Source: Gemmatimonadaceae bacterium
GTDB lineage: Bacteria > Gemmatimonadota > Gemmatimonadetes > Gemmatimonadales > Gemmatimonadaceae
Length of the DNA: 64,000 bases
Assembly (NCBI GenBank): GCA_045803545.1
Contig: JBJMOW010000004.1
Location: forward strand, 192,001 to 256,000
Direction of reading: 5' to 3'
A program made the translations under genes and the position numbers. Below the pieces are notes generated by a model. That model ran no database searches. It saw only the letters and a list, made by a program, of their open reading frames with translations, and had not been told where the DNA came from. This document shows, in pieces, positions 3,573 to 20,938 of this stretch (position 1 is the stretch's first letter; each line of letters begins with the position of its first letter).

Positions 3573-5748
<2,176 letters not shown>

Positions 5749-5799
5749 CCAATATATACGCGCTGCGAGACATTCGACCTCACAATCACCGAGGTAGCT

Positions 5800-18674: not shown

Positions 18675-18820
18675 AGGGCACCTTCTTTCCTTTGAAAGAG
18701 CGAGCTCTTTCGTCGCGCCCGATGTCCGCATTGCGGGCGAGGAATGAAGGTAATGGCGATAAACTGTAGAAGTGGGTTGAACCCTTTACGCGGACCGTCG
18801 GCCGCCCCTCGGCCCTGACC
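18675..18820 (-). promoter_or_regulatory. Candidate structured 5' leader RNA of the ankyrin gene
   Basis: Stems GTCCGCGT/ATGCGGAC, GGGT-TCA-ACCC, GAAAGAG/CTCTTTC and AGGGC/GCCCT; anti-SD CCTTCATTCCT is 10/11 complementary to the SD region. Confidence 0.55.
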
Positions 18821-18889
18821 GAATCTGAGTTCAGCTAGCGCCGATGGCAACCAGCCTTGACGGCGAAAACCAGACACTACATCGTGAAG

Positions 18890-19045
18890 GCGGCGTCGAA
18901 TCCGCGCCCAACCTCTTGAGACTCCGCCCGGCCGGAGTCCGTAGCGAGGCAAAGGGGGGCAAACTCCCGGATTGATCGTCAGTCCTTTGCGTCACCGCGG
19001 CGCGCTGCTGGGAGAGCACCGTGGTGTGTCCAAAGGAGATTGACG
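18890..19045 (+). promoter_or_regulatory. Candidate structured 5' leader RNA (three hairpins plus loop-loop pairing)
   Basis: GACTCCG/CGGAGTC, GCAAAGGG/TCCTTTGC, CACCGCGG/CCGTGGTG; loops CTCCCGG and CTGGGAG are complementary; TTGACG -35-like element at 18857. Confidence 0.55.
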
Positions 19046-19714
19046 ATGACTTCCAACAAGGATTTCAAGCGCCTCGTTCGCGCTCGCATGAAGAAGACCG
19101 GTGAAGCGTACACCACCGCCCGGTCGAACGTCCTCAAGAAACCCAAGAAAAACACGGCGATCGATTACGCCGGGCTTGCCGGCATGAGTGACTCCGTGAT
19201 CGAGGAGAAAACTGGCCGCAATTGGGAGCGCTGGGTTAAAGCGCTCGATCACGATGGCGCCGAGAAAATGCCGCATGGTGAGATCGCTGCGCTGGTGAAA
19301 AAAACTTACAAGGTCGGCGAGTGGTGGTCGCAGACCGTGACCGTTGGCTACGAGCGCATCAAAGGACTTCGTGCCAAAGGTCAGCGGCGCGACGGGAGCT
19401 ATGAGGCGAGTAAGTCTCGAACCTTCGACGTGCCGGTCAAAACTCTGTTCGCGGCGTGGGCAGACGGTGTTACCCGCCGGCGCTGGTTGAGTGGAGCGAC
19501 AGTGCGAATTCGCACTGCCACCGAACCAAAGTCAATGCGCCTCGACTGGAACGAATCCATTGTTGCCGTTGGATTCGCGCCGAAAGGAAGCTCCCGGAGC
19601 TCCGTTGCGGTCCAGCACACCAAGCTGCCCGATCGTGAAACAGCTAAGGAGCTGAAGGAATACTGGGCGGCACGTCTCGACGCACTCGGCAATGTGCTCG
19701 CCAGGCGATCATAG
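19046..19714 (+). CDS. Protein with basic N-terminal KRLVRARMKKTGEAYTTAR module, DUF4287-like middle and SRPBCC/AHSA1-like C-terminus
   Basis: AAGGAG SD 7 nt before ATG 19046; EEKTGRNWERW...HGEIA...WWSQTV; SKSRTFDVPVKTLFAAWAD...LKEYWAARLDAL. Confidence 0.8.
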   Translation: MTSNKDFKRLVRARMKKTGEAYTTARSNVLKKPKKNTAIDYAGLAGMSDSVIEEKTGRNWERWVKALDHDGAEKMPHGEIAALVKKTYKVGEWWSQTVTVGYERIKGLRAKGQRRDGSYEASKSRTFDVPVKTLFAAWADGVTRRRWLSGATVRIRTATEPKSMRLDWNESIVAVGFAPKGSSRSSVAVQHTKLPDRETAKELKEYWAARLDALGNVLARRS

Positions 19715-19822
19715 CTGAAGGCGGAGCCGTTGGCTGCATGAAGGTGGCCGGCAACAGAAACGATTCTCCCGAGCCTCATTCACTCATGCTAGAATGAGGC
19801 TCGGATCCCTCCGGCTATCAGT

Positions 19823-20938
19823 ATGAGCATAAGCCACAACCTGGCATGGACCGCGACACGCGAGGACTACGAGCGCGAAGCGGCAGCGTTGTACGATGCG
19901 CTGCAAGCTCGCCAGGACTCGGCGCTGTGGAATTTCAAATGGATGCATCCGCATTTTCGCGGCAAGACCGTCACCGACGTCGATCCAACCATTCTCGACC
20001 TCGACGATGCGCGACTCGTCGTCGCCCATGAGTATGGGTTCCCGGCGTGGTTCAATCTCATGAAATTCGCGGACGACGTTGGACAGGACGGGCAGCCAGC
20101 ACAGTTCGAGCGTGCGGTCGACGCTGTCGTGTCAGGTGACATCGCTACGCTCAGAGCGATGATTGGCGATGATCCGCAGCTGGTTCATCGGAGATCGGCA
20201 CGCTTTCACCGCGCAACGCTGCTGCACTATATCGCGGCAAACGGAGTAGAAGGCGTCCGCCAGAAAACTCCTCCCAATGCCATGGAAGTCGCGCGGACGT
20301 TACTGGACGCCGGGGCGGATCCAGACGCGCTTGCGATGATGTACGACAACCTGTGCACCACGATGAGCATGCTGGTCTCCAGTGCGCACCCCGCCGGTGC
20401 CGGACTACAGGCAGATCTCGCCGAGCTGCTGTTGGATTACGGCGCAAAGCACAACGGGCCGGGATCAGAGTGGCAATCCGACATCATGACCGCGCTGGTG
20501 TTCGGATACTGGAAAACGGCGGACCGCTTGGCGAAGCGTGGTGCCCCGGCCGACAATCTTCCCACGGCTGCGGGACTCGGCCGCGTCGACGAAGCGACCC
20601 AGCTACTTCCGGCAGCGGATGCACGAAGCCGACATATCGCACTCGCGCTCGCCGCGCAGCACGGCCATGCCAACGTCGTACGAGTTCTGCTCGACGCGGG
20701 TGAGGACCCCAATCGATTCTGCCCGGAGGGGTTTCACTCCCACGCGACTCCGTTGCACAACGCGATTTCCGCCGGCCGGGATGACGTCGTCAAGCTGCTG
20801 CTGGATCGCGGGGCGCGCACGGACATCAGGGATACGATTTTCGACGGGACGCCGCTCGATTGGGCGGTCTACTGCAAGAAGCCGGAAATCGTCGAAGAAC
20901 TACGCAACCGCGGAGCTCCTACCAGCAACGCAGGGTAA
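19823..20938 (+). CDS. Ankyrin-repeat protein with N-terminal A.LVVA.EYGF..W module
   Basis: ATLLHY, ALALAAQHGH, ATPLHNA and GTPLDWA ankyrin motifs. Confidence 0.88.
   Translation: MSISHNLAWTATREDYEREAAALYDALQARQDSALWNFKWMHPHFRGKTVTDVDPTILDLDDARLVVAHEYGFPAWFNLMKFADDVGQDGQPAQFERAVDAVVSGDIATLRAMIGDDPQLVHRRSARFHRATLLHYIAANGVEGVRQKTPPNAMEVARTLLDAGADPDALAMMYDNLCTTMSMLVSSAHPAGAGLQADLAELLLDYGAKHNGPGSEWQSDIMTALVFGYWKTADRLAKRGAPADNLPTAAGLGRVDEATQLLPAADARSRHIALALAAQHGHANVVRVLLDAGEDPNRFCPEGFHSHATPLHNAISAGRDDVVKLLLDRGARTDIRDTIFDGTPLDWAVYCKKPEIVEELRNRGAPTSNAG

Follow-up and report, generated by a model that had tools for sequence, protein, structure and literature searches.

In this study we identify a structured 5' leader RNA that contains two pseudoknots and a predicted Shine-Dalgarno (SD) stem, and that goes together with a basic N-terminal peptide of about 30 residues, encoded directly after it, regardless of the cargo domain behind the peptide. 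The stems and pseudoknots are shown by comparison of homologous leaders, and the link between RNA and peptide is strongly supported by the joint distribution of the two sequences. Coordinates refer to the window, the whole 64,000-nucleotide stretch of a Gemmatimonadaceae contig that was analysed, in which the leader and its gene lie on the plus strand. No Rfam 15 family reached its gathering threshold on the leader (best E value near it 0.54), and among 20 diverse related loci Rfam returned only tRNAs, in locus L049; a TPP riboswitch (RF00059, 61.5 bits) is located at 5632-5750 on the minus strand, distant from the leader. Full-text searches of the open-access literature yielded no description of this RNA.

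Architecture of the leader

From 5' to 3' the fold consists of a stem P0, a CAA linker, P1 (enclosing P2 and loop 1), a CAAA junction, P3, the strand GGATT and, beyond a variable linker, a long 3' hairpin. P0 (GGCG/CGCC, 18892-18895/18905-18908) holds in its loop the 5' strand of the first pseudoknot, PK1 (AATCC/GGATT, 18899-18903/18969-18973), and is followed by the conserved CAA (18909-18911), which takes the form NAA or YGA across the family. P1 (CCTC/GAGG, 18912-18915/18946-18949) carries P2 (GACTCCG/CGGAGTC, 18920-18939), a hairpin already recognised, within the same CCTC/GAGG frame, by a first-pass annotation of this sequence, together with kissing loop 1 (CCCGGC, 18927-18932). The near-invariant CAAA (18950-18953), a candidate protein or ligand contact, leads into P3 (GGGGG/CTCCC, 18954-18958/18964-18968, with a 5-nt loop). 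The 3' hairpin is based on the stem TCCTTTG/CAAAGGA (18983-18989/19031-19037), seen in both the minimum free energy (MFE) fold and the alignment, continues through P5 (CACCGCGG/CCGTGGTG, 18993-19026) with the inner closing pairs CT/AG (19005-19006/19013-19014), and is tipped by kissing loop 3 (GCTGGG, 19007-19012), which pairs with loop 1 to form the second pseudoknot, PK2. The family norms of the two loops are CCCCAGC and GCTGGGG; in the window each lacks one base relative to the nearest homologue (L001), giving a PK2 of 6 bp versus 7 bp in the family.

Since the CCTTTG strand pairs with the SD (AAGGAG, 19033-19038), the SD falls inside the structure, and the earlier statement that the structure ends just before it was incorrect, as both the MFE fold and covariation place the SD in the last stem. 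This sequestration, along with P0 and PK1, goes beyond the fold first proposed, and the nested part of the comparative fold is calculated at -52.4 kcal/mol compared with -38.6 kcal/mol for that earlier fold. The region 18885-19060 folds better than 197 of 200 shuffled sequences (z -2.39).

Comparative evidence for two pseudoknots

The leader region is conserved in homologues, and leaders were gathered from 9 genome loci, 30 loci, the window among them, of a 401-genome phylum search in which 54 genomes matched, 80 of 591 metagenome matches, 2 viral contigs, 22 plasmid loci chosen from 37 and 39 records, and 20 further regions. Alignment A4 was built from the 120 of 143 leaders that possessed the 5' anchor and enough flank (23 were dropped), of which 86 were left at 90% identity and 85 after the exclusion of L040. 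In A4, where one cargo family dominates and kin rows are therefore not independent, 95.6% of cells are paired compared with 38-58% in slid controls, and 27 of 38 pairs show changes on both sides. A more divergent, model-made alignment of 45 rows (A5), fitted to the nested structure and containing a single spurious row from the minus strand as well as four divergent rows that align poorly, gave 93.4% of cells paired and two-sided changes in 36 of 47 pairs. One-sided changes in the leader are G-U rather than A-C, in agreement with the plus-strand direction of transcription that the first-pass annotation had read from the wobble pairs.

Support extends to each element of the fold. In A5, P0 is 92.8% paired with a two-sided change in one of its four pairs, P1 is 100% paired with two-sided changes in two of four, P3 is 99.5% paired with the variants GGAGG/CCTCC, GGGAC/GTCTC and GGGGA/TCCTC, and PK2 is 99.3% paired. 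In A4, two-sided changes occur in all five pairs of PK1 (96.7% paired), in all six counted pairs of P2 and in all five counted pairs of P5, which had likewise been annotated beforehand as a hairpin and whose closing pairs vary on both sides; loop 3 is 99.8% paired with loop 1. The SD stem is 89% paired with two-sided changes in 6/6 pairs, some of which come from misaligned rhizobial rows, eight rows of rhizobial type being one column out at P3 and at the SD stem. RNAalifold placed P3 one base further to the right, a register that we did not adopt, since G-to-A variants can pair in the chosen one alone.

An anchor-based parse succeeded for 105 of 119 leaders and recovered a PK2 of 7 bp in 103 of them, of 6 bp in the window and none in one. 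The pairing is maintained through variants such as CCCCGAC/GTCGGGG, CCTACGC/GCGTAGG, CTCACGC/GCGTGAG, CCTTGGC/GCCAAGG and CCTGCGC/GCGCAGG, and loop 3 departs from the norm in 12 types altogether, among them CCCACAT/ATGTGGG on a mycobacterial plasmid. PK1 varies in the same parse as GTCC/GGAC, AACC/GGTT, GCCTC/GAGGT and TCCTT/AAGGA. The junction reads CAAA in 102 of the 105 parsed leaders, with CAAG in distant Actinomycetota copies, and the linker reads CAA in 75, TAA in 17, GAA and AAA in 4 each, TGA in 3 and CGA in 2, counts from a parser that itself demands NAA/YGA. On a leader tree calculated with the loops masked, changed loop pairs appear in several separate parts, with rough support values. 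A descriptor of the 7-bp kiss and core motif, composed after the sequences had been seen, recovered 134 of 156 peptide-gene leaders versus none of 1560 shuffles and none of 464 other genes of the genome. A looser kissing-loop descriptor was discarded; it matched 141/156 leaders but also 178/468 shuffles and 101/300 control genes. A permissive parser assigned wrong kissing pairs to the window, L040 and L041, and its calls are therefore only a hint for distant copies.

The first-pass annotation had described a compact, tertiary-folded cis-regulatory RNA. Compactness, tertiary folding and placement in cis hold, given the covariation, the promoter pattern and the fixed distance to the start codon, whereas the tertiary contact that it named does not. 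That contact joined a loop 2 (CTCCCGG, 18964-18970) to loop 3 (CTGGGAG, 19008-19014) across a hairpin 2 formed by GCAAAGGG (18949-18956) and TCCTTTGC (18983-18990). The two loop strands are complementary in the window (7 bp, one G-U), but this is not a conserved contact: the pairing is present in 83% of cells, one pair of the window's register fails in 84 of 85 rows of A4, and a shifted register with G-U allowed yields a 7-bp run in only 43 of 85, mostly close homologues. In the 14 further leaders whose loop 3 is altered, the loop 2-loop 3 pairing falls to 4-5 bp in nine, whereas loop 1-loop 3 keeps 7 bp in all 14. The strands of hairpin 2 are present as well, but as a conserved fold it is 81% paired with a two-sided change in one of eight pairs, and its place is taken in homologues by the small hairpin P3 and by PK1. 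Hairpin 2 and the loop 2-loop 3 kiss were consequently rejected as the conserved fold on pairing and on the changed-loop leaders; the strands of this kiss are also required by P3, PK1 and the pairs closing loop 3. Both window loops being one base short explains why CTGGGAG seemed a perfect partner of CTCCCGG.

Promoter and ribosome site

The TTGACG hexamer noted earlier as a -35-like element is present at 18857-18862, and is followed after a 17-nt spacer by a -10-like CATCGT (18880-18885), on which a consensus promoter scanner made no call. The spacer is 17 nt in 82 of 100 leaders, and a TTG-N19-21-xAxxxT pattern precedes 91 of 100 leaders versus 79 of 2000 shuffles, a conserved arrangement of sigma-70-like type. 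It ends mostly 19-22 nt before the 3' strand of P0, about 6 nt before the first stem, and from this we infer that transcription would start at P0, in the window at about 18891-18893. Two soil RNA runs contain 6% of the words; in one soil RNA run, contigs of relatives cover 18905-19057 and 18982-19122, revealing neither strand nor start and possibly deriving from DNA, and the extra C of loop 1 and the extra G of loop 3 are on different contigs.

Folding calculations predict that the last stem occludes the SD, which is paired in 93 of 103 MFE folds of leaders and has a median unpaired probability of 0.19 compared with 0.39 in 150 control genes (below 0.3 in 84/103 leaders versus 62/150 controls). 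In calculations on nested folds, forcing the ribosome site open costs a median of 12 kcal/mol without protein, and the constrained folds contained no conserved open form: the anti-SD strand re-pairs with the P1/CAAA/P3 strand in just 25 of the 97. An alternative anti-SD pairing appears in one subfamily only. The permissive parse did not recover the SD helix in 7 of 102 leaders, four of them rhizobial.

Because the calculations predict a closed ribosome site in the protein-free leader, some weight goes to three rivals of the feedback model that we favour below, namely a switch that is activated by the protein or released by a signal, a riboswitch and a trans-acting RNA. For the first of these, the leader would be off by default and the peptide-bearing protein would open it, or would release it on a signal read by the cargo, in a switch-on or positive loop. 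We consider this unlikely, despite the strength of the predicted closed state and despite a possible open form in leaders with CCTTTG, whose anti-SD pairs about equally well with the GCAAAGG of hairpin 2 (-10.4 versus -8.6 kcal/mol in the window). Only within the CCTTTG subfamily could hairpin 2, and with it the loop 2-loop 3 kiss, serve as an alternative fold. Once the anti-SD changes the alternative is lost, and in 20 of 26 leaders of this kind the anti-SD pairs better with the SD; the unrelated cargoes also speak against a common signal.

Coupling of the RNA to the peptide

A connection between the RNA and peptides of the K..RARM..TGE.Y..AR type, at which the first-pass annotation hinted, has strong support. 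An RNA model (R1) detects one copy in this genome and 20 in 151 genomes of the phylum, and all 20 matches lie directly before peptide codons, one of them in a decayed gene. Conversely, among 58 places in 401 genomes with a strong peptide match, 57 carry the RNA, in two cases truncated; 50 of the 58 overlap DNA matches with leader sequence, seven more match R1 (E <= 6e-4), and the remaining one keeps a 5' remnant only. The RNA is absent in all 14 cargo homologues without the peptide. As in autogenous translational operators of the r-leader type, a conserved structured 5' leader here overlaps the ribosome-binding site and co-occurs with the gene of its putative regulator (20/20 and 57/58, versus 0/14 without the peptide).

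Copies of the RNA come from Gemmatimonadota, one Planctomycetota MAG, Alphaproteobacteria and Actinomycetota. None of six same-genus genomes carries the cassette. Matches were obtained in 37 plasmid records, with hosts including Rhizobium, Sinorhizobium, Microvirga, Phyllobacterium, Streptomyces, Nonomuraea, Nocardiopsis, Curtobacterium, Frondihabitans, Euzebya and mycobacteria; IMG/VR provided two loci, and a phage collection gave no peptide match. This patchy and plasmid-borne occurrence fits a self-contained cassette. Among the 22 plasmid loci, the architecture was recognised by model, descriptor or permissive parser in 18, the most distant with only moderate support, and the kiss alone in one; nothing was recognised in three plasmid genes with weak peptide scores (L137, L138 and L141). 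Two of these, L137 and L138 from Streptomyces plasmids, share another sequence, AGGTGCTCCGCGCCGCGC...TTGAGTCC, about 50 nt before the start codon, which is perhaps a reduced or different leader. In a Frondihabitans plasmid (L049, NZ_AP027733.1) the cassette sits within an array of at least 12 tRNA genes. Decayed cassettes were observed at four loci, L020 (genome G250), L166 (G234), L167 (G301) and L178 (G004), with the 5' half of the RNA lost in three or a 5' remnant alone, and the gene broken in three; at L020 an intact 236-aa ORF and a promoter accompany a leader lacking its 5' half.

The cobalamin, lysine and ZTP riboswitches are translational riboswitches with kissing loops or pseudoknots, and the present leader resembles them in its loop-loop contact, conserved purine junctions, anti-SD/SD stem and occurrence in several phyla. 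It differs in having no Rfam match and in that a peptide rather than a pathway is shared downstream; among nested folds no conserved alternative appeared. A small-molecule or ion riboswitch, with the peptide serving as a nascent-chain or co-regulatory element and not as ligand, is in our estimation quite improbable: its presence in several phyla, its pair of pseudoknots, its conserved purines outside the stems and its SD stem are riboswitch-like by criteria set out in PMC5737381, but the RNA tracks the peptide and not a metabolic function, and it matches no Rfam riboswitch.

We assign a slightly smaller chance still to an RNA that acts in trans as a tag-binding subunit, silencing, localising or licensing the cargo enzyme in a manner loosely like an RNA antitoxin. 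In its favour are the strict one-to-one coupling with the tag and a weak resemblance between the tag and the helices of VapB antitoxins (hhalign 74.7%). Type III toxin-antitoxin systems place tandem RNA repeats before an RNase toxin, whereas here the RNA is present as a single copy in the genome, with no repeat array and no terminator after it; moreover, the SD is built into the fold and the cargo families are neither RNase toxins nor other recognised toxins.

The peptide and its cargoes

The peptide (MTSNKDFKRLVRARMKKTGEAYTTAR..., 19046-19141) begins a 222-aa ORF (19046-19714) whose remaining parts resemble DUF4287 (residues 52-98) and AHSA1/SRPBCC (153-218), at Pfam scores of 26.2 and 22.0 bits, both slightly below the curated cut-offs; its nearest relatives are from Gemmatimonadota MAGs and one Planctomycetota MAG. 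Residues M1, K8, R12, R14, G19, E20, Y22 and A25 are invariant in 40 rows, and a two-helix hairpin is predicted, with helices at 4-18 and 22-30 (pLDDT 56-74) in a single-sequence AlphaFold2 model of which, at a mean pLDDT of 38, only these N-terminal helices are usable. The peptide profile matches 4027 clusters at 50% identity; ESM Atlas gave no usable match, and neither Pfam nor NCBIfam contains a family that matches the peptide, as a ribosomal or other known RNA-binding protein or otherwise. In several of the proteins P0121-P0266, 20-70 extra residues stand ahead of the peptide, probably through start codons miscalled by reading across the leader. The cargo domains are unrelated to one another: behind the peptide are DUF4287/AHSA1-SRPBCC-like regions and, on plasmids, nitrilase, BtrH_N with DUF4872, FtsK-like and unknown domains, genes among which no shared metabolic theme was found.

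Profile comparison suggests that the peptide descends from a ribbon-helix-helix domain, since the profiles align over two helices. The family concerned, PF07704 (PSK_trans_fac, VapB/Rv0623-like antitoxins), has the ribbon-helix-helix fold, and its helix-TGES-helix segment aligns with the peptide over 28 columns (hhalign probability 74.7%; PDB 4xgq, E 0.054). PF07704 itself matches none of 17 peptides, whereas a VapB control scores 98 bits, and the peptide differs from VapB in its predicted lack of the beta-ribbon and in having neither a Pfam hit nor a cognate toxin. A further alternative is that the peptide is a degenerate ribbon-helix-helix repressor acting on promoter DNA while the RNA acts alone. 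The match to PSK_trans_fac/VapB helices points that way, but the ribbon segment, AISIKD in the VapBs compared, is replaced by MTxxKDFK and modelled as helical from residue 4, no conserved operator was found between or around the hexamers, and VapB-type antitoxins, which form the weakest genome matches of the peptide profile and include three true VapB genes, lack such a leader. We regard this alternative as highly improbable.

A proposed model of negative feedback

We propose, at about even odds and by analogy with S15 and the rpsO pseudoknot, that the peptide binds the leader of its own transcript and keeps translation off, forming a portable negative-feedback cassette. According to PMC3985624, S15 recognises the rpsO operator solely as a pseudoknot and acts as a repressor of its own production. 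The E. coli rpsO/S15 system, also the subject of PMC4137082, likewise has a pseudoknotted 5' leader by the ribosome site that is strictly tied to the downstream protein, and the same logic may apply here. The putative partner in our case is a 30-residue tag on unrelated cargoes and not a housekeeping RNA-binding protein, and no Rfam leader of ribosomal-protein operators matches this RNA.

Transcription would start at P0, and translation of some transcripts would precede, or coincide with, closure of the fold. Once protein has accumulated, it would bind the conserved core (the CAA and CAAA junctions, P1, P3 and the kissing helix) through K8, R12, R14, Y22 and R26, and would lock the closed fold with its SD stem, thereby limiting translation. 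Promoter, RNA and peptide would in this way constitute a unit that works for any cargo domain fused behind it. In favour of this feedback model are the covarying structure, the coupling of RNA and peptide across unrelated cargoes, and the small, basic nature of the peptide with its invariant K, R and Y residues. Several observations count against it: the site is predicted to be already shut, where a repressor adds little; L020 retains its intact 236-aa gene behind a leader without the 5' half; no conserved open fold was found; the SD helix was unrecovered in 7/102 leaders; and L137, L138 and L141 have no recognisable leader.

A neighbouring leader before an ankyrin gene

A second conserved leader RNA lies on the minus strand at 18675-18816, before a divergent ankyrin gene, with matches in 11 of 201 genomes. 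Its -35-like TTGCCA (18850-18845) is back to back with TTGACG, and its parts are GGCC-loop-GGCC, GGTCCGCG, TAAA, GGGT-TCA-ACCC and a CCTTC/GAAGG hairpin with the loop GCGGAC; four of its loci gave no Rfam match. By inspection it resembles the peptide leader in a 5' stem loop that pairs after a small hairpin, a YAAA junction, an SD hairpin whose loop pairs upstream, and a tie to an N-terminal helical module (LPxxPxLEWLRKxAK...YGFxSW). It is, however, not matched by R1, and the two protein modules show no homology (hhalign 0.15%). A second ankyrin gene (19823-20938) has an N-terminal ARLVVAHEYGFPAW segment like the LPxxPxLEWLRKxAK module, and between it and the peptide gene lies a perfect 13-bp inverted repeat, CCGAGCCTCATTC/GAATGAGGCTCGG (19769-19804).

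Possible implications for accessory gene regulation

To our knowledge, known autogenous leaders each serve one housekeeping protein. The wider interpretation that we put forward, tentatively and as somewhat less than an even bet, is one of portable RNA-peptide cassettes, in which three parts have been grafted together onto thousands of accessory genes that are otherwise unrelated: a promoter, a leader with a double pseudoknot, and an RNA-binding tag of 30 residues that stems from a DNA binder of the ribbon-helix-helix type and has lost its ribbon. Such a cassette would set the dosage of its gene without regard to the host. The second RNA in the window, which shares this topology but has an unrelated tag and lies back to back with the first, would turn these cassettes into a class. 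Together these analyses describe an uncatalogued, multi-phylum RNA with two covarying pseudoknots, and its link to an unnamed tag of 30 residues that recurs in roughly 4000 protein clusters. If the tag binds the RNA, the two would rank with the smallest regulatory pairs of RNA and protein in nature. Variants whose loop codes have changed naturally would offer parts for synthetic feedback circuits, and the pairing would explain how accessory genes that move between hosts could limit their own expression on arrival.
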